This document shows positions 1 to 48,935 of a DNA stretch of 48,935 bases, one piece after another. This DNA is from a virus, in UHGV virus genome UHGV-1375816; one strand, given 5' to 3'. Position numbers and translations under genes: made by a program. The notes beneath the pieces were generated by a model that was given only the letters and a program-made list of their open reading frames with translations, was not told the origin of the DNA and did not search any database. Position 1 is the stretch's first letter, and each line of letters begins with the position of its first letter.

Positions 1-147
1 CTACATTTATATTATATATTATATACTTTCTATTACTACTAATTACTATTTTATAGGGGTATAGGGGTAATAAGTAGTATAGTACTGAAAGTTAAAGAGT
101 TTTTGATACCCCGATGAAGTACCCCGAACGAGTTTCATCGGGGTATG
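1..147. repeat. 3' part of a ~300 bp imperfect direct repeat. The 5' part is 48785..48935, and the second copy is 14172..14477
   Basis: The AT-rich block 'ctacatttatattatatattatatactttctattactactaattactattttata', the GGGGTATAGGGGTAATAAG direct repeats and the hairpin all recur at 14328..14477. The window end (...tataaactatacattatgtattata) recurs at 14290..14330, contiguous with that copy. Confidence 0.85.
109..143. other. 10-bp-stem hairpin (ccccgatgaa N15 ttcatcgggg) inside the repeat, with no U-tract after it
   Basis: The inverted repeat was read directly. The copy at 14436..14471 keeps the pairing with substitutions. Confidence 0.6.
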
Positions 148-177
148 TGGCAATGACGGGTCAGTCATGGTAGAATC
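145..177 (+). promoter_or_regulatory. Candidate extended -10 promoter (TGgTAGAAT at 168..176) upstream of terS
   Basis: TG-n-TAGAAT lies 34 nt upstream of ATG 210. The -35 is weak (atGACGgg). Confidence 0.35.
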
Positions 178-209: not shown

Positions 210-626
210 ATGGCAAGACCACTTAACGAATTCGGCGTTACCGAACAGCAGGAGAAATTCTGCCGCGTCTTCGTTGAGACGGGGAACGCATCTGAGGCTT
301 ATCGTCAGTCTTACAAATCTGACCGTAAGAATGCGAACACTATCGCTGTGGACGCATCACGCCTACTCGATAAGCCCAATGTTAACCGTAGAATTGGTCA
401 ACTGCGTGAAGGACACATCAAACGCCATAACGTGACAGTTGATTCACTCATTGCCGAACTGGAAGAGGCGCGCATTGCCGCTCTGACCGCCGACACTGTG
501 CAAGCGTCTGCAGCAACCAGTGCGACGATGGGCAAGGCGAAACTCCTGGGACTGGATAAGCAACTCATCGAACTGAGTGGCGAAGTGGGCATCCGCAAAA
601 CACTGGACGATTTTTACGGTGACTAA
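210..626 (+). CDS. Terminase small subunit (HTH-type)
   Basis: The N-terminus MARPLNEFGVTEQQEKFCRVFVETGNASEAYRQSY is typical of Terminase_2-like small subunits. The gene lies immediately upstream of the large subunit. Start ATG 210 has a GGGGA RBS, and the ORF track's GTG 198 start is upstream. Confidence 0.7.
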   Translation: MARPLNEFGVTEQQEKFCRVFVETGNASEAYRQSYKSDRKNANTIAVDASRLLDKPNVNRRIGQLREGHIKRHNVTVDSLIAELEEARIAALTADTVQASAATSATMGKAKLLGLDKQLIELSGEVGIRKTLDDFYGD

Positions 627-12622: not shown

Positions 12623-13252
12623 ATGTCGGTAACAACTTACGAAGTTCTTTCTGCTAATACAGTTAGCGAACTCGTTGCACTCGTCAATGCTGCAACAGGT
12701 AAAACGCCACTTGGTGAGATATTCATCCAAGGTGGTGCGCCTCGACAGGTGGTTGTCACAGGTGAGCCGGTAAGCGGGTACATCTCTGAAGATTATCGAG
12801 CTGTTGTCGGTGTAGACCCACGGGGTCTGGCTGACGCTGTAATGGCTGTCATGACTAATGACATTCAACCATTGGGTGCGCCAATCATCCGTAACAACAC
12901 AATGATTCAGATGATGGGAACCGTGACCCCTTCAAGTGGCGGCTCTGTGGCGTGGGGTAATATTACCGGGAAACCTGCTGTTATCGCCGCAGGTGCGAAC
13001 GCCGCCGCAGCACGTACCGCAATTGGCGCGGGTACTTCAAGTCTGGTCATTGGCACAACCGCATCAACAGCAATGGCTGGTGATAAGTTCACGCAAGGCT
13101 CAGCGGTACCCAATGTCGGATCACAGACGGTATCGGGAGATGAAGCAGCTTCCGTGGCTACCTCGGCAACCACGGCTGTTAACGTGGTTGCGACAAAATT
13201 AAATGACCTGCTTACCCAGCTGCGCGCCTCTGGCATTATTGCATCGAACTAA
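12623..13252 (+). CDS. Tail-fibre-repeat protein (short, 209 aa)
   Basis: WGNITGKPAVIAAGANAAAARTAIGAGTSS matches the phage tail-fibre repeat WxxITGKP. GAGGT RBS. Confidence 0.45.
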   Translation: MSVTTYEVLSANTVSELVALVNAATGKTPLGEIFIQGGAPRQVVVTGEPVSGYISEDYRAVVGVDPRGLADAVMAVMTNDIQPLGAPIIRNNTMIQMMGTVTPSSGGSVAWGNITGKPAVIAAGANAAAARTAIGAGTSSLVIGTTASTAMAGDKFTQGSAVPNVGSQTVSGDEAASVATSATTAVNVVATKLNDLLTQLRASGIIASN

Positions 13253-13260
13253 TTAATATG

Positions 13261-13282
13261 AGCCCCTCACGGGGCTTTATTC
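13261..13282. terminator. Intrinsic terminator hairpin (AGCCCCtcacGGGGCT + TTTATT)
   Basis: GC-rich stem followed by a T-run, after the fibre-like gene. Confidence 0.7.
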
Positions 13283-13507
13283 ACCAATCCTCCCGGCGTA
13301 GTGACGACCGTAATACTTCATGATGACCTTGTCAGCACATAAATAACCTTCATCCTCAACCACGATACCTCTGATAATGAAGAATCTACGATAGTGTTTT
13401 GTTAGCATACTGGTGACTCTCCACCCCATTTCTCTACGATTCACCGCTGTAATGCGACTTGTGGTCACAAACAGGGCGGTTCCGGACTTATGCTTTACTG
13501 CCCACAT
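13277..13507 (-). CDS. Hypothetical protein
   Basis: ORF. It overlaps the upstream minus-strand ORF by 20 nt in another frame. Confidence 0.35.
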   Translation of the reverse strand: MWAVKHKSGTALFVTTSRITAVNRREMGWRVTSMLTKHYRRFFIIRGIVVEDEGYLCADKVIMKYYGRHYAGRIGE

Positions 13508-13940
13508 ATTTAATCACCATGTACCCTGGTTTTGCGGAAAGCGAGACCTTGTGTTCGTATATCTCCGCGATTTTATATACGTATGTCAACTGTGCGGTGC
13601 GCAACTTAATGTCTGAATATGTTGCTTCCGTTCTCCAGTCCCATGCGAATTCCTCACCGGGTTTTGCATTTTCAAAGATGTCACGAAGGATGATGTGCTC
13701 ATACGATTTTACTCCACGTGGTGCGCGGTCCCAATTTTTGGGTTTTCCTCGCGCCAGACTTCGACCATCTATTTTTCCACTTTTTGTAATTCGCATTGGT
13801 CCCCGTGATGTCTGTACGACACCTTGAGGAACGTCATCAGACGCAGAGTGTTCACGTTGGCGCGCTCGACTCTTGTCGGACTTCACTTCCTCTTCTGGGG
13901 CATAATTTATTTTTTTTAAAATATAAGATGCAAATGACAC
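13488..13940 (-). CDS. Hypothetical basic protein
   Basis: AGAGAGG RBS before GTG 13940. A palindromic promoter lies upstream. Confidence 0.45.
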   Translation of the reverse strand: MSFASYILKKINYAPEEEVKSDKSRARQREHSASDDVPQGVVQTSRGPMRITKSGKIDGRSLARGKPKNWDRAPRGVKSYEHIILRDIFENAKPGEEFAWDWRTEATYSDIKLRTAQLTYVYKIAEIYEHKVSLSAKPGYMVIKYVGSKA

Positions 13941-13973
13941 GTTGTTATTCCTCTCTTTCTAATTCGTGTACTG

Positions 13974-14002
13974 AGTGTATCAATGGTTGACGAATCCGTC
14001 AA
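13974..14002 (-). promoter_or_regulatory. Promoter (TTGACGGATTCGTCAA, 17-nt spacer, TACACT)
   Basis: Reverse complement of 13974..14002. Palindromic -35 family. Confidence 0.55.
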
Positions 14003-14026
14003 TACCACGCGGTGACGTCGAGGCTA

Positions 14027-14180
14027 ATTTCATTCCGATCAAAAAGTGAACAACTTTGTAGTACAATATAATTACAGTGTACTACCGTATAATTTCATTC
14101 CGATCAAAAAGTGAACAACTTTGTAGTACAATATAATTACAGTGTACTACCGTATAATTTCATTCCGATCAAAAAGTGAA
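14027..14180. repeat. Tandem 65-bp direct repeats (2.4 copies). Each carries the 8-bp inverted repeat GTAGTACA/TGTACTAC and a TATAAT
   Basis: Unit starts at 14027, 14092 and 14157. The third copy degenerates. Confidence 0.85.
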
Positions 14181-14477
14181 CGATTACCCGAAAACACCCC
14201 GAAATGCACGAGGCATAGGGGTGGCGAATTTACTTTCACAATCAGCAGCTTACGAGCATAACCGAAAACCCCGTACATTCTTCCCTTCTTCCTTCTTATA
14301 AACTATATAAACTATACATTATGTATTATACTACATTTATATTATATATTATATACTTTCTATTACTACTAATTACTATTTTATAAGGGTATAAGGGTAA
14401 TAAGTAGTATAGTACTGAAAGTTAAAGAGTTTTTGATACCCCGTTGAAGTACCCCGAACGAGTTTTAACGGGGTGTG
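14172..14477. repeat. Copy B of the ~300 bp repeat
   Basis: Collinear with 48785..48935 + 1..147. Substitutions include ataggggtataggggt -> ataagggtataagggt. Confidence 0.85.
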
Positions 14478-14506
14478 TGGATACTGGCGCAACGTTGTGT
14501 GATAAT
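14478..14506 (+). promoter_or_regulatory. Candidate extended -10 promoter (TGtGATAAT)
   Basis: TG at 14498..14499 and GATAAT at 14501..14506, 24 nt before ATG 14530 (GAGGA RBS). Confidence 0.4.
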
Positions 14507-14529
14507 AGCTTGACAAATGAGGACACACT

Positions 14530-15033
14530 ATGTCAGTCAACATCAAAGCGCTGCAGCAAGCCAAACAGGCAATACGTTCGAAACTGGAGCAATACGCTAA
14601 AGCCAGTCAGAAGACCGTGACTGTCGGCATCCATTCGGACGCAGGTGAACATCCTGACTCGGGAATTACTAACGCACAGCTTGGTGCATTACTGAATTAC
14701 GGTAACCCAAATAACAAGTTGTACGGTAATCCCGCACCTATCCCGCCGCGCCCCTGGCTGATACCCGGTGTACAAAGTGGTAAACAGGATATCGTGGACA
14801 CCATCGCTCACGGTGTAGCTAATGATTTGCCTCTTGACCAGGTACTCGAACAAGTGGGCGCATTTGCAGCTGGCGCGGTGCAGCAATACATGACCGATTT
14901 GCAGCAACCCCCGAACAGCGCATACACTATCGCTCAAAAGGGTTCCAGCAATCCGCTTATCAGCACCGGCGCTTTACGGGCAAGCGTTACGTACAAGGTC
15001 ACCAACGAGAAACCAGACGAGGGCATCTCATGA
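14530..15033 (+). CDS. Neck / head-tail adaptor protein (candidate)
   Basis: First gene of the tail block, ahead of the sheath gene. Confidence 0.4.
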   Translation: MSVNIKALQQAKQAIRSKLEQYAKASQKTVTVGIHSDAGEHPDSGITNAQLGALLNYGNPNNKLYGNPAPIPPRPWLIPGVQSGKQDIVDTIAHGVANDLPLDQVLEQVGAFAAGAVQQYMTDLQQPPNSAYTIAQKGSSNPLISTGALRASVTYKVTNEKPDEGIS

Positions 15034-15383
15034 GTCTGTCAATGCGTGGTCATATTGACAACGTGTTTAAATCTGTACCGGCGACACATGTGGGTAAATC
15101 TGGCTCATACGTGGACGGCATCTGGGTCACCTCGACATCCGGACCGGTTGCATTCACGGTGAACATTCAACCACTGAGCGACAAGGAAATTGATTTTCTG
15201 CGTCAGGGTGGTCAGCGCATCGTTGACCCACGTAAAATATACGTTAACAATGGTGACCTGGACTCAATCGCACTCGATGGGGAATGGGTATTCCTGGGTC
15301 AGCGCTGGAAAGTTATTCGCACCGACAATCGCCCGTGGCGCAAATACTGTAAGGTAATCGTGGACCGCTATGACCAACAATGA
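15030..15383 (+). CDS. Neck / tail-completion protein (candidate)
   Basis: Position in the block. Overlapping stop/start with its neighbour. Confidence 0.35.
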   Translation: MSLSMRGHIDNVFKSVPATHVGKSGSYVDGIWVTSTSGPVAFTVNIQPLSDKEIDFLRQGGQRIVDPRKIYVNNGDLDSIALDGEWVFLGQRWKVIRTDNRPWRKYCKVIVDRYDQQ

Positions 15384-17595: not shown

Positions 17596-18261
17596 TTAAA
17601 TCAAACCTTCTTCGGATAATTTTCTGACAATCCACATTTCACCTTCGGCATAAAACATAGGTTGTGAGAACCCGTTCTCTGTCTCACGCATTATTCCGTA
17701 CCCCTTATCGATGAACCATTGCTGAAATACACGTCCACGCTTCACGGAGCGATTGTAGACGCCCATCGAGGCTAGTTGTTTGTTTAACCATATCGCTGAT
17801 TGTCCAAACTTCTGTGCGATTTGAGTGGCGTTATAGAGACCATTGCGTTCTACAATCCGGTCGTAGACGTCTGCTTTTGGTGTCATCTCCTTGTTCTCTA
17901 GTGCGAGACGTTCTTTCTCTTTCTCGCTTTCCAGCAGCGCTTCAAGTGCTTGAATATAGTTTTGTGGTAGTGCGGGTGTATTCACCCGTGATTCCAGCTC
18001 TTGCCAGCGACGAATAATGGCGGCACGCATTTTGATACTGTAGCCCGACACCAGAATCAACGTGTTTTCTTTGTTTAGAAGAAAGACCTTACTCGGTCTG
18101 CCTCCGTTCGACGGCATGACCTTTTCCTCAAAAGTGAGGGAAAGGTCTTGTGCCATTTTTGATATGTCGCGTCGTACATTATCGTGTTCCTTCCCAGTCA
18201 ATTCTGCAATCTCACGGCTGGACATCGTTTGTACTCCGCCGACGTTCATTAAGCTGTCCAT
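17596..18261 (-). CDS. Rha-family regulator with C-terminal ANT/KilAC anti-repressor domain
   Basis: MSSREIAELTGKEHDNVRRDI is the Phage_pRha N-terminal motif. The C-terminal ~100 aa is near-identical to that of 19033..19782. Confidence 0.75.
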   Translation of the reverse strand: MDSLMNVGGVQTMSSREIAELTGKEHDNVRRDISKMAQDLSLTFEEKVMPSNGGRPSKVFLLNKENTLILVSGYSIKMRAAIIRRWQELESRVNTPALPQNYIQALEALLESEKEKERLALENKEMTPKADVYDRIVERNGLYNATQIAQKFGQSAIWLNKQLASMGVYNRSVKRGRVFQQWFIDKGYGIMRETENGFSQPMFYAEGEMWIVRKLSEEGLI

Positions 18262-18340
18262 ATTTCGTATCTCCTCTGTTGTTTGTGTGATTGTGGTTTG
18301 TTTATGGTCACGATGGTGACTGACTAGATTTTGAACTTGC
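18262..18340 (-). promoter_or_regulatory. Conserved control region of Rha paralogue 1 (shares GTTTGTTTATGGTCACGAT with the regions at 18641..18735 and 19783..19849)
   Basis: Direct sequence comparison of the three upstream regions. Confidence 0.5.
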
Positions 18341-18343
18341 GAA

Positions 18344-18640
18344 TCATTTTGTCAGCATTCTTTTGAGTCTCATTGCGCACAGGTAGATGGTGTTATCTTT
18401 ATCCAGCCGGTACTCCCATGCGTTTGGGTTGGTGGTATCATACTGAATGCACATAACCCCTTGATTCGTAACGTAACTCAAATTTGAGTTACGAACATAA
18501 TCTTCATCGTGACCACCATGTAGAGCGCAGAGCATTGAGCGAATGTCTCTGCAAACATTGTCGTGACGCTTCTCAACTAGCGTCGCAATCTCGCGGCTAG
18601 ACATGGTTAGTTCCGATTTTGTGTTTACTAAATCGTTCAT
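18344..18640 (-). CDS. Rha-family regulator (N-terminal domain only)
   Basis: MSSREIATLVEKRHDNVCRDI. Confidence 0.65.
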   Translation of the reverse strand: MNDLVNTKSELTMSSREIATLVEKRHDNVCRDIRSMLCALHGGHDEDYVRNSNLSYVTNQGVMCIQYDTTNPNAWEYRLDKDNTIYLCAMRLKRMLTK

Positions 18641-18735
18641 CTCTGTTCTCCCCTCTTGTTCGCGTGAGTATAGTTTCGATAAAAATCACGACCCGTTCAA
18701 ATCGATTTGTTTATGGTCACGATTAACGATGTGAT
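18641..18735 (-). promoter_or_regulatory. Conserved control region of Rha paralogue 2, with TCGTGAC direct repeats and a TATACT -10
   Basis: Shared with the other two upstream regions. Confidence 0.5.
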
Positions 18736-18756
18736 TGACCACAATTGGCCTCTTAA

Positions 18757-19011
18757 TTACTTTCTTTTACTCCGAATGTGAAAGTTTGCTTTGTCCATCA
18801 TTTCTTTACGCCAGCAAATCCCGGTACCCATGCACGCCGGGTCGTCACTTTCCGCGTAACCGTATTCATTTTCATGATACGTGCAAATCGTATCGGTTTG
18901 CTCATCGTAAATCTGGAATTGCTCGCTCTGAGCACTGTGGGCACCACTGCAGTAAATTGCCGCAGCCACGATGACAACCAACTGAATTTTAAATTTGTTT
19001 AACATTTTCAT
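18757..19011 (-). CDS. Small secreted Cys-containing protein with a signal peptide
   Basis: MKMLNKFKIQLVVIVAAAIYCSGAHSA is a signal peptide with an AHS-A cleavage motif. GGGGAG RBS. Four Cys in the mature part. Confidence 0.6.
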   Translation of the reverse strand: MKMLNKFKIQLVVIVAAAIYCSGAHSAQSEQFQIYDEQTDTICTYHENEYGYAESDDPACMGTGICWRKEMMDKANFHIRSKRK

Positions 19012-19032
19012 ATCTCCCCTGTTATTTTTAAC

Positions 19033-19782
19033 TCAAATCAAACCTTCTTCAGATAATTTTCTGACAATCCACATTTCACCTTCAGCATAAAACATGGGTT
19101 GTGAGAACCCATTCTCTGTCTCCCGCATTATCCCGTACCCCTTATCGATGAACCACTGTTGAAATACACGTCCGCGCTTCACTGAGCGATTGTAGACGTC
19201 CATCGAGGCTAGTTGTTTGTTTAGCCATATCGCTGATTGTCCGAACTTCTGGGCGATCTGAGTGGCGTTATATAGGCCATTGCGTTCTACAATCCGATCG
19301 TAGACGTCTACTTTTGGTGCCGCTATCGACAGTTTCTCCTGCGCAATTAGTTTCTGCTCGTACTCGGTAGCCCATGCCCTCGCGGCTTCTGCTGGATTTG
19401 TGAAGTCTGGTAGTTGTTGTTTGCTGGCATTCTCCAGTTCTTGCCAACGGTCTACTAGTCTGGCAGTAAATTCCGGTGACAATTGGGCGACCACAATGAT
19501 ACTGTCTCGCTTACCCCGTTCGCCTTCGAACATGAATACTTTTTCCGAGCGAAGGCGACCTAACGAGTCGGTTTTTTGTTCATCCTCAATTTGAGGACGG
19601 ACGATCACACCGTTGTCCGCCAGAGTTTCGATGGTACGCTTCACGTTGTCATGACGCTTCTCAACCAGCGTCGCAATCTCGAGGCTAGACATAGTTAGTT
19701 CTAATTTCATGTTTATTAGATCGTTCATCTCTGTTCTCCATTTGTTTGTGTGAGTGTAGTTTCGATGAAAATCACGACCCAT
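19033..19782 (-). CDS. Rha-family regulator with C-terminal ANT/KilAC domain (longest paralogue)
   Basis: MSSLEIATLVEKRHDNVKRTI. 19033..19340 is ~93% identical at the DNA level to 17596..17900. Confidence 0.75.
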   Translation of the reverse strand: MGRDFHRNYTHTNKWRTEMNDLINMKLELTMSSLEIATLVEKRHDNVKRTIETLADNGVIVRPQIEDEQKTDSLGRLRSEKVFMFEGERGKRDSIIVVAQLSPEFTARLVDRWQELENASKQQLPDFTNPAEAARAWATEYEQKLIAQEKLSIAAPKVDVYDRIVERNGLYNATQIAQKFGQSAIWLNKQLASMDVYNRSVKRGRVFQQWFIDKGYGIMRETENGFSQPMFYAEGEMWIVRKLSEEGLI

Positions 19783-19849
19783 TCAAATCGATTTGTTTAT
19801 GGTCACGATTAACGATAGAATTAATGGTATCTAACTGAGGGGGAATAAA
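19783..19849 (-). promoter_or_regulatory. Conserved control region of Rha paralogue 3
   Basis: Shared GTTTGTTTATGGTCACGATTAACGAT block. Confidence 0.5.
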
Positions 19850-48155: not shown

Positions 48156-48734
48156 TTATCTCCCACAATTACGGCATTTACCATTTGCCACATAACGTTC
48201 CGCAATAATATTACAATGCTTGCAAGGCTCATACGGAATATACCAGCGTTTGCCGTCAGCGATGGCCTGCTGGCGCGGTGATTTCATTTTAATGACCCCA
48301 ACGTGAATTCCTGATTCGCTCAGTAACAGGGCGTTTTTCATCGTCTGTAACTGCTCATTCAAAACGGAAATATTATGTTCAATCATGGCGATGGTTTCAC
48401 GCAGTGCGTCAACCTCACCAGCGGTGTTAACAATGGTCGGTTTTGGTTTTTTCCATTCTCCCGTCATGCGTTGCTCGGTTAAGCAGAAGACACATTTACC
48501 AGCGGTGTTACGGACGCCCGGATGTCCACATTCGCTGTTTGGTTTCTTCTGTAGCCTCCATGAGCGACCATCGTTAAGACCGTCGAGAACTTTCTGATAG
48601 AGTTCATTGCGTGCGGGAAGACCCATGTTTTTCGCTTTCACAAAATTATGGTGGTCATGAAGTGCACAAATACTACACAATTCTGTTTCTTTAAATTTTG
48701 TAGTCCCGTGACAATTATCTATAAGATGAATCAT
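48156..48734 (-). CDS. Cys-rich zinc-finger protein (192 aa) with central coiled coil
   Basis: AAGGAGAG RBS. N-terminal C-x11-C-x2-C-x2-H-x2-HH, central ECGHPG..CVFC, C-terminal CKHC...CRNCG. Confidence 0.55.
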   Translation of the reverse strand: MIHLIDNCHGTTKFKETELCSICALHDHHNFVKAKNMGLPARNELYQKVLDGLNDGRSWRLQKKPNSECGHPGVRNTAGKCVFCLTEQRMTGEWKKPKPTIVNTAGEVDALRETIAMIEHNISVLNEQLQTMKNALLLSESGIHVGVIKMKSPRQQAIADGKRWYIPYEPCKHCNIIAERYVANGKCRNCGR

Positions 48735-48784
48735 GTTTCTCTCCTTTTGTAGAGTATATACTATAAAATAATAGAGAATTACGG

Positions 48785-48935
48785 GTCAATACCTCATTTT
48801 ACCCCGAAATACCCGAGGCATCGGGGTGGCGAATTTACTTTCACAATCAGCAGCTTACGCGCATAACCGAACACCCCGTACATTTTTCCCTTCTTCCCTC
48901 TTATAAACTATATAAACTATACATTATGTATTATA
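48785..48935. repeat. 5' part of repeat copy A (continues at 1..147)
   Basis: Collinear with 14172..14330. Confidence 0.85.

Follow-up and report, generated by a model that had tools for sequence, protein, structure and literature searches.

Phage promoters are known to carry repeated regulatory sequences, and the element described here, an intergenic sequence that occurs twice in UHGV virus genome UHGV-1375816, appears to be a variant of this kind that is undescribed in the searchable literature. The stretch of DNA analyzed, called the window below, is one strand of 48,935 nucleotides. Several described systems frame the comparison. The late promoters of P2 and P4 share a site for the activators Ogr and Delta, placed by a weak −35. 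The pacL and pacR sites of SPP1 and the hexamer arrays of P1 pac are pac regions recognized by small terminases. In phage Mu, the late promoters Plys, PI, PP, and Pmom share C sites located just upstream of the −35 (PMC4461284). The late promoter of phi29 lacks a −35, diverges from the early promoters, and depends on regulator sites between them (PMC2731898); in its switch region, a single protein complex acts as repressor on one side and as activator on the other (PMC2731898; PMC10899789). Finally, T4-type phages carry PeSL units, repeated non-coding combinations of a promoter and a stem-loop that border hyperplastic accessory regions and serve as recombination points (PMC2839356).

At ~48.9 kb, the window represents the complete genome of a Klebsiella myovirus that resembles JD001 and belongs to the genus Jedunavirus; its best database matches are 96-98% identical, and none is identical. 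It is circularly permuted, which is why one copy of the element, copy A, wraps around the window ends. Copy A lies ahead of terS and the head genes, and copy B ahead of the neck and tail genes. Each copy carries an array of one short motif in a fixed register to the rightward promoter that follows it. This arrangement suggests a DNA-level control region that would couple the two virion-operon promoters to one regulator, a reading for which we judge the chances to be about even.

Two Copies Between Divergent Promoters

A repeat search and local alignment on the circularized window sequence recover two copies that match over 285 nt without a gap, with 13 mismatches (95.4% identity). The sequence-only reading of this genome had reported a duplicated element of ~300 bp at the head of the two virion-gene blocks, and both the duplication and the gene context are borne out. 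An nhmmer profile search detects copy B in two parts (right part, E 8e-39; left part, E 8e-29) and finds no third, diverged copy in the window. The boundaries, by contrast, differ from those first proposed. The left start had been placed at 14172, but the first 24 nt are not homologous and are the tail of a 65-bp tandem repeat. On the right, homology had been said to stop exactly where the extended −10 begins, whereas at both copies it ends 17 nt upstream of the extended −10 (TGgTAGAAT at copy A, TGtGATAAT at copy B), inside the −35, after the TGG of TGGCAA and TGGATA, respectively. The −10 and the spacer are locus-specific.

Both copies occupy divergent intergenic regions, between a predicted, near-consensus leftward sigma-70 promoter and a predicted rightward extended −10 promoter with a poor −35 (Table 1). 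In most relatives, the homology between A and B also spans GTCAA(T/C)ACCTCATTTT, including the leftward −35. What is duplicated is thus everything between the two promoters, from −35 to −35. In the window phage, this homology is cut at 14196 because the 65-bp tandem repeat is inserted at the left edge. The repeat array separates the leftward −35 from the left edge of copy B; each of its units holds a palindrome with an 8-bp stem (GTAGTACA...TGTACTAC). It is also present in phage RCIP0015 and some other relatives, and is missing from phage KpV52, Pectobacterium phage PEAT2, and Acinetobacter phage LAPP1.

The head block upstream of copy B is closed by a bidirectional terminator at 13261-13276, so that a restart promoter is needed at locus B. 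Within the window, only two intergenic sites combine GGGT and a following A or G with an extended −10 located 21-26 nt further on, and these are the two element promoters.

Table 1. Coordinates of the two copies, their internal features, and the flanking promoters and genes in the window. Promoters are predictions.
Feature	Position	Strand	Description
Copy B	14196-14480	+	Upstream of the neck/tail-completion gene; ungapped match to copy A
Copy A, left 135 nt	48801-48935	+	Runs on at window position 1
Copy A, right 150 nt	1-150	+	Upstream of terS
AT-rich center	14289-14430	.	80% A+T vs 52% genome-wide; identical in both window copies
Left motif cluster, copy B	14196-14273	.	ACCCCG 14196-14201, GGGGTG 14218-14223, AACCCCG 14267-14273
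Tandem motif pair, copy B	14382-14401	+	TATAAGGGTATAAGGGTAAT; ~−118/−126 from the promoter
Tandem motif pair, copy A	52-71		TATAGGGGTATAGGGGTAAT
Tandem direct repeat, copy B	14386-14401		AGGGTATA-AGGGTAAT
Tandem direct repeat, copy A	56-71		GGGGTATA-GGGGTAAT
Promoter-proximal inverted motif pair (hairpin), copy B	14436-14476		ATACCCCGTTGAA ... TTTTAACGGGGTGT
Hairpin, copy A	106-146		ATACCCCGATGAA ... TTTCATCGGGGTAT; perfect 13-bp stem
Predicted neck-operon promoter	14478-14506	+	−35 TGGATA, 17-nt spacer, TGtGATAAT; conserved in relatives
Predicted terS/head-operon promoter	148-176	+	−35 TGGCAA (3/6), 17-nt spacer, TGgTAGAAT; conserved in relatives
Predicted leftward promoter, locus B	13974-14002	-	TTGACG, 17-nt spacer, TACACT with TG; serves two small minus-strand genes
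Predicted leftward promoter, locus A	48760-48789	-	TTGACC, 18-nt spacer, TATAGT; 192-aa zinc-finger gene; read from sequence
65-bp tandem repeat	14025-14180	.	~2.4 copies, unit TAATTTCATTCCGATCAAAAAGTGAACAACTTTGTAGTACAATATAATTACAGTGTACTACCGTA, full copies identical
terS (Terminase_2)	210-626	+	First gene after copy A
Tail-completion/Neck1 gene	14530-15033	+	First gene after copy B
192-aa multi-zinc-finger/coiled-coil gene	48156-48734	-	Divergent from copy A; candidate motif binder

An Iterated Motif in Register with the Promoters

The conserved unit of the element is the short motif TACCCC(G)/(C)GGGGTA, present in 8-9 copies per element. Eleven of the 37 matches to ACCCCG/CGGGGT in the genome fall within the two copies, which make up 1.2% of its length (P ~1e-6 for one copy alone). 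Read from left to right, the array begins with a direct and an inverted motif by the leftward promoter. A direct copy, or two, follows ~250 nt ahead of the rightward −10. Then come a polypyrimidine tract, the AT-rich center, a tandem inverted motif pair, a purine-rich stretch, and a direct motif pair. One or two inverted copies abutting the rightward −35 complete the order. Elements of very different sequence have this order and orientation in common.

The distances to the promoter are equally constrained. Counted from the −10, the motifs of the window group lie at ~−42, −63/−76 (direct), −118/−126 (tandem inverted), ~−250, and ~−300 to −320. Those of a group resembling Pantoea phage AAM22 lie at −44, −74/−87, and −132/−140, and those of two metagenome loci (L164/L165) at −53, −83/−97, and −141/−149. 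From one sub-clade to another the array is displaced by 9-11 bp (the distal pair by 14 bp), with its internal spacing unchanged. Even relatives with no more than 50-78% identity in terS keep the register to the −10. The right core, which bears the motifs, is mostly 80-99% identical to that of the window, compared with 62-79% at third codon positions of the neck gene. By this measure, the right core diverges more slowly than synonymous sites.

The AT-rich tract, the direct repeats, and the CCCCG/CGGGG mini-hairpins named in the sequence-only reading are all present. In copy B, a polypyrimidine tract at 14280-14297 precedes the AT-rich center, whose plus strand has a G-free run (14324-14386) followed by a C-free run (14377-14414). 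The direct repeats take the form (A/G)GGGTATA-(A/G)GGGTAAT in both copies, and the mini-hairpins lie at the left edge, where folding as DNA gives a z score of −2.45 in copy B and −1.24 in copy A.

Conservation in Related Phages

The sequence-only reading had named absence from related phages among the outcomes that would speak against it. Instead, the element lies at two or more places in all 71 related phage-collection records, and both loci are occupied in every one. The 60 rows listed have it at two or three places each, 157 in all; a count of three arises because the start of the record splits copy A, as in KpV52 and the window. Both loci are also occupied in PEAT2, which belongs to another genus, in LAPP1, and in the more distant AAM22, whose two copies are 75% identical over 247 nt. 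Copy A is recognizable in uncultivated contigs of ~48 kb with terS 50-78% identical, and is absent beside other terS relatives from other phage types. The occupation of the same two loci in all relatives, with no further copies found in the window, does not match a miniature inverted-repeat transposable element or a similar mobile non-coding element. Depending on the genome, the segment shared between the loci ranges from ~115 to more than 285 nt.

Distant relatives are harder to survey. A scan of IMG/VR with the 14-mer TACTAATTACTATT was discarded, as this sequence is AT-rich and unspecific (~120 chance matches). The copy B patterns TACCCCGATGGTNTACCCC and GATTTTATCAGGGTAT gave one match per contig in distant contigs, and the sheath protein, used as bait for distant tail loci, retrieved close relatives only. 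The second copy in the distant contig group was found only through the cultured relative AAM22.

Metagenome contigs of the clade (IMG/VR loci L126-L167) often end in the element, at a distance of 105-169 nt from the neck gene or 113-230 nt from terS, and some of these contigs measure ~13.6-14 kb or 33.7-35.6 kb, the lengths of the two arcs between the copies. The repeat therefore breaks assemblies. This likely explains why records, and the window itself, start in the middle of copy A, and it accounts for a recurring assembly artifact of the clade. Partial "genomes" that lack the head or the tail arc may sit in databases. Existing database records annotate the element with at most software-predicted promoters or spurious small open reading frames (ORFs).

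Concerted Evolution of the Two Copies

An alignment of both copies from nine genomes is a mosaic. The two loci of PEAT2, LAPP1, and one metagenome phage have only the right ~115-155 nt in common, and their left halves differ, one being A-type and the other B-type. The window, KpV52, JD001, RCIP0015, and others carry a B-type left half at locus A. Since the A-type left half has been replaced by the B-type, the two loci appear to be functionally interchangeable. The AT-rich center makes the pattern plainest: its median identity is 41-45% between orthologous copies of different genomes and 93% between the two copies within one genome, reaching 100% in the window. These alignments indicate that repeated gene conversion between the direct repeats keeps the copies nearly identical, and that the 285-nt extent of the repeat is a lineage-specific product of the same process. 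The center thus offers a clean non-coding case of concerted evolution. For phage engineering, direct repeats of 285 bp are predicted to recombine, yielding a 34.6-kb deletion genome without head genes and a 14.3-kb circle.

A Zinc-Finger Gene Linked to the Motif Cluster

The gene that diverges from copy A encodes a protein of 192 aa in which three Cys/His clusters accompany a long helix at the center, modeled by AlphaFold2 with a predicted local distance difference test score (pLDDT) of 85.6. Its invariant residues are C69, H71, C81, and C84, together with a C-terminal block of W164, Y165, C171, C174, N184, C187, and C190. The last ~40 residues resemble the zinc ribbon attached to HNH/EndoVII-type proteins. 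The protein belongs to no Pfam family and to a PHROG of unknown function. It has no sequence relative and no fold match in the PDB (best E 1.1), and in a viral structure library it matches only uncharacterized phage proteins.

The distribution of this gene follows that of the motifs. Among terS loci with a full upstream flank, each one that has the motif cluster also has the divergent 192-aa gene, down to 25% protein identity, and the gene is absent from those that have no motif cluster. It is a classical layout for a regulator gene to diverge from its target and for the intergenic region that they share to hold the binding sites. The linkage of the divergent gene to the motif cluster makes the 192-aa protein the best candidate for a motif binder.

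The Promoter-Proximal Hairpin

The sequence-only reading also described a hairpin with a 10-bp stem and no U-tract, called the element structured, and listed antitermination or processing in the RNA among its candidate roles. The hairpin is present in both copies, with a measured stem of 11-13 bp and no T-run; the sequences that follow it are TGTGTGGATAC on the plus strand and TCAAAAACTC on the minus strand. It consists of an inverted motif copy that can pair with either of two direct copies, the second of which in copy B lies in the loop (TACCCCG at 14450-14456). Folded as DNA, it reaches −7.8 kcal/mol (z −2.2) in copy B and −12.5 kcal/mol (z −4.3) in copy A.

The 21 distinct variants compared keep the long stem paired in 90% of cells, and six of its 13 pairs are invariant because the arms are the motif itself. 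The covariation check across relatives does not rise above shuffled controls: the long hairpin scores 0.059 against a shuffle mean of 0.079, and 483 of 500 shuffles score as high or higher. The short alternative stem contains one CG→UA double change, a score matched by 21 of 500 shuffles. Substitutions between the copies had been said to partly preserve the pairing. The pair in question (T-A in copy B, A-T in copy A) is real in the window, but among the 21 variants it is UA in seven, AU in three, and a mismatch in 11. Several lineages extend the stem to 10-13 bp with sequence of their own (TACCCCGTAT/ATACGGGGTA, TACCCCGGTC/GACCGGGGTA), which may reflect selection for symmetry or cruciform potential.

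As RNA, the element as a whole is not unusually structured (fold z −0.41). Rfam 15 returns nothing at gathering score in the whole window, and a permissive search of 13900-14600 yields only eukaryotic miRNA and snoRNA noise, at 10-22 bits against thresholds of 43-101. A terminator scan of 13200-15100 finds no intrinsic terminator inside the element, and a promoter scan finds no conserved internal promoter. Compensatory changes above the level of shuffles and an unusually stable whole-element fold, as in a generic structured cis-regulatory RNA, are not seen, and the hairpin lies upstream of the predicted start sites. Taken together, these results do not support the RNA roles.

Other Features of the Two Loci

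Several further sequences were noted at or near the copies. A perfect palindrome, TTGACGAATCCGTCAA at 13987-14002, overlaps the predicted leftward −35 of locus B, is kept in KpV52, PEAT2, and LAPP1 as TTGACGGATTCGTCAA / TTGACGAATCCGTCAA, and could, from its sequence and position, be an operator. A sigma-54 promoter, suggested by eye for TGGCAA/CTGGCGC, was rejected on its spacing and the misfit of the GC dinucleotide. An IHF-core-like sequence, AATCAGCAGCTTA, occurs in the left half of both copies (14240-14252 in copy B, 48845-48857 in copy A). The IHF core consensus lies at ~−273 in the window group, a perfect AATCAATAACTTA lies at ~−105 in part of the AAM22-like group, and the consensus is absent elsewhere. 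The five matches in the genome, two of them in the element, equal chance expectation, so that an IHF site as a universal bend was set aside and counts as a hint only. At 14476-14484, TGTGGATAC agrees with the complement of the DnaA box (TGTGGATAA) at eight of nine positions. This near-match overlaps the neck-operon −35 and is kept at locus B in relatives, not at locus A.

The left half of both copies also contains a minus-strand mini-ORF (MYGVFGYARKLLIVKVNSPP..., 14278->14147 and 48883->48794) behind a polypurine stretch, which overlaps two motif copies. Its start and its first 20 codons are conserved, and ~9 of the ~20 variant codon changes within those codons are synonymous. It was rejected as a gene, given that its stop wanders (20-43 codons), Leu->Pro changes occur, and it is missing from AAM22-type elements; judging by these sequence features, it is probably non-coding.

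Among the neighboring genes, terS is itself mosaic within the genus (63-100% amino-acid identity, terS loci L148-L172), with a nearly unchanged promoter and 5' leader upstream, and some relatives have an extra small ORF between the promoter and terS. A minus-strand island at 17596-19816 in the tail block holds Rha/KilAC (Ant-like) duplicates (17596-18261, 19033-19782) and a truncated Rha-domain gene (18344-18640); its repeats of 285, 97, and 89 nt are 88-93% identical and include upstream regions.

Possible Functions of the Element

A late-operon control element, one of the roles put forward in the sequence-only reading, fits best, with the fixed promoter register and the presence of both copies in every relative examined in its favor, although function is here read from sequence. 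Three observations lead to the control-region reading: the array keeps a fixed register to two unrelated core promoters over large divergence, both copies are retained in every genome despite the risk of deletion between direct repeats, and the left halves are interchangeable. The operons controlled would run from terS through the head genes and from the neck gene through the tail. A sequence-specific protein would occupy the motif sites and build a looped or wrapped complex, with the AT-rich center serving as an easily bent or melted spacer between them. This complex may recruit or block the host RNA polymerase at the rightward promoter, possibly with the opposite effect at the leftward one. 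The candidate binder would be the 192-aa zinc-finger protein, whose gene follows the predicted leftward promoter beside copy A, and as a result both virion operons would switch together.

A number of points weigh against this model. Some 285 bp with 8-9 sites is far beyond what a simple activator needs, and both promoters, with a decent extended −10, might fire unaided. The evidence for helical phasing comes from three sub-clades only. The motif cluster is absent at the other rightward virion-gene blocks that follow leftward islands (~4100, 7078, 19850), so the element is not a general late-promoter signature. The 192-aa protein has no recognizable DNA-binding fold, and its alleles are very divergent within Jedunavirus (39-96% identity) beside nearly identical motifs; the co-occurrence of gene and element could be simple shared ancestry. 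The literature search returned no report of start-site mapping, binding, or expression timing for the clade. Nor did it turn up an account of the element or of sites for transcription or packaging in this clade, save for the statement that the related phage IME346 has "no fixed termini".

Other functions would account for part of the same evidence. HNH proteins encoded beside terminase genes can assist DNA packaging, as in HK97. In a pac region, oligomers of TerS, possibly with the zinc-finger protein, would bind the motifs flanking a bendable AT-rich center, headful packaging would start nearby, and copy B would be a second pac or a partner of A. Copy A indeed immediately precedes terS, where pac or cos sites are often located, with short motifs on both sides of the AT-rich center; terS is of the Terminase_2 family, like SPP1 G1P, and the C-terminal zinc ribbon of the 192-aa protein resembles modules on HNH/EndoVII nucleases. 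The report that IME346 lacks fixed termini is also consistent with headful packaging (PMC9007800). One site suffices for pac, however, yet copy B, ahead of the neck gene, is conserved to the same degree throughout the clade. A fixed register to both −10s is unneeded for packaging, terS identity ranges from 63% to 100% next to motifs that hardly change, and the A-specific left half is dispensable, having been replaced by the B-type. We consider a pac region to be rather unlikely. A replication origin, or a pair of origins cooperating like P4 ori/crr, is a distinctly improbable alternative, in which the motifs would be iterons and the AT-rich center an unwinding element aided by negative supercoiling between the divergent promoters. 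It would explain why the motif is iterated in both orientations beside a tract of ~140 nt with 80% A+T, why this tract lies between divergent promoters, and why it changes quickly while keeping its composition, as a purely physical element would; the near-DnaA box TGTGGATAC also suits it. But that box occurs at locus B only, the replication genes lie 25-33 kb away (~31.7-47.9 kb), the switch of strand and GC skew near 39 kb is off the element, two origins in the same orientation 14 kb apart would be unusual, and a fixed register to the −10 boxes is unexpected. GC skew was in any case dropped as an origin indicator, as it tracks gene orientation only.

The copies could instead be a recombination linker without a function of their own, ordinary promoter-upstream DNA homogenized by gene conversion that serves as a crossover point for head, tail, and accessory modules. 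Strong concerted evolution and the mosaic alignment agree with this, as do terS alleles 63-100% identical beside a conserved upstream region, leftward gene islands beside copy B that differ greatly between phages, and metagenome assemblies that the repeat splits into a ~14-kb and a 34-kb arc; PeSL cassettes provide a precedent (PMC2839356). Neutral DNA, on the other hand, would lose motif order, orientation, and promoter register in the distant AAM22 or L179/L198, and would not diverge more slowly than synonymous sites. Keeping 285-bp direct repeats exposes a genome to deletion, and the retention of both copies in every genome despite this cost argues for selection. A mere linker is as improbable as an origin. 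Least probable of all, at a very low level, is that the hairpin and its flanks act in the transcript (in antitermination, processing, stability, or as a small RNA) or as an extruded single-stranded hairpin. The hairpin is more stable than its shuffles, the inverted motif pair is present in every relative with the stem extended in several lineages, the short alternative shows one double change, and the AT-rich part carries predicted rightward promoters in the KpV79 and KpV52 annotations. Against this stand the results given above on covariation, the mismatched pair, invariant arms that are the motif itself, the whole-element fold, Rfam, the missing U-tract, the scans, and the position of the hairpin upstream of the start sites, and the AT-rich part, the sole place for an internal promoter, is not conserved between genomes. 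A more specific proposal is also unlikely: the elements would be partner sites of an undescribed system, in which the 192-aa protein binds the TACCCCG arrays and either bridges the loci, by pairing or looping the control regions of the head and tail operons, or represents a new class of late-gene switch, with matching within a genome under selection instead of arising as a side effect of recombination.

Of these, coordinated control of the two virion operons is the reading we favor. Jedunaviruses are widely isolated as therapeutic Klebsiella phages, and the element and the zinc-finger gene could provide a cis/trans model for the timing of virion gene expression.

Comparison with Known Systems

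The element resembles the phi29 A2c/A2b-A3 region, governed by p4 and p6, in that a few hundred bp separate divergent promoters, the late one of which has no typical −35. In the sequence predictions, the leftward promoters are near consensus (TTGACG-17-TACACT, TTGACC-18-TATAGT), the rightward ones combine TGGATA or TGGCAA with an extended −10, and multiple putative sites lie between them at conserved positions. In contrast to phi29, whose switch has a known function, that of the element is deduced from sequence; the two share no sequence similarity, the motif is different, the host is Gram-negative, each genome has two such regions homogenized by gene conversion, and no homologue of p4 or p6 was identified in the window.

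The late promoters of Mu and of P2 and P4 offer a second likeness, as a motif copy abuts the weak −35 at ~−42 in both element promoters. Their sites, however, are single dyads of ~20-30 bp, whereas the element has 8-9 motifs over ~285 bp and an AT-rich spacer, and it occurs at only two promoters. No C or Ogr homologue was found in the window. PeSL units are further removed: they are small and numerous, with a strong early promoter and a stem-loop that is an effective terminator, while the element is found in exactly two copies at fixed loci, ends inside the −35, and has a stem-loop without a T-run upstream of the promoter. With the pac regions of SPP1 and P1, it shares a position 5' of terS, short motifs iterated on both sides of a bent or AT-rich center, and a presumably headful phage; it departs from them in its second, equally conserved copy 14 kb away before the tail genes and in its fixed register to promoters.

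By analogy, the closest functional counterparts appear to be the phi29 A2b/A2c-A3 region and the Mu late-promoter sites, and the element is a member of neither group. It is notable for how large it is, for occurring strictly in two copies, for the concerted evolution of these copies, and for the orphan zinc-finger gene linked to it.

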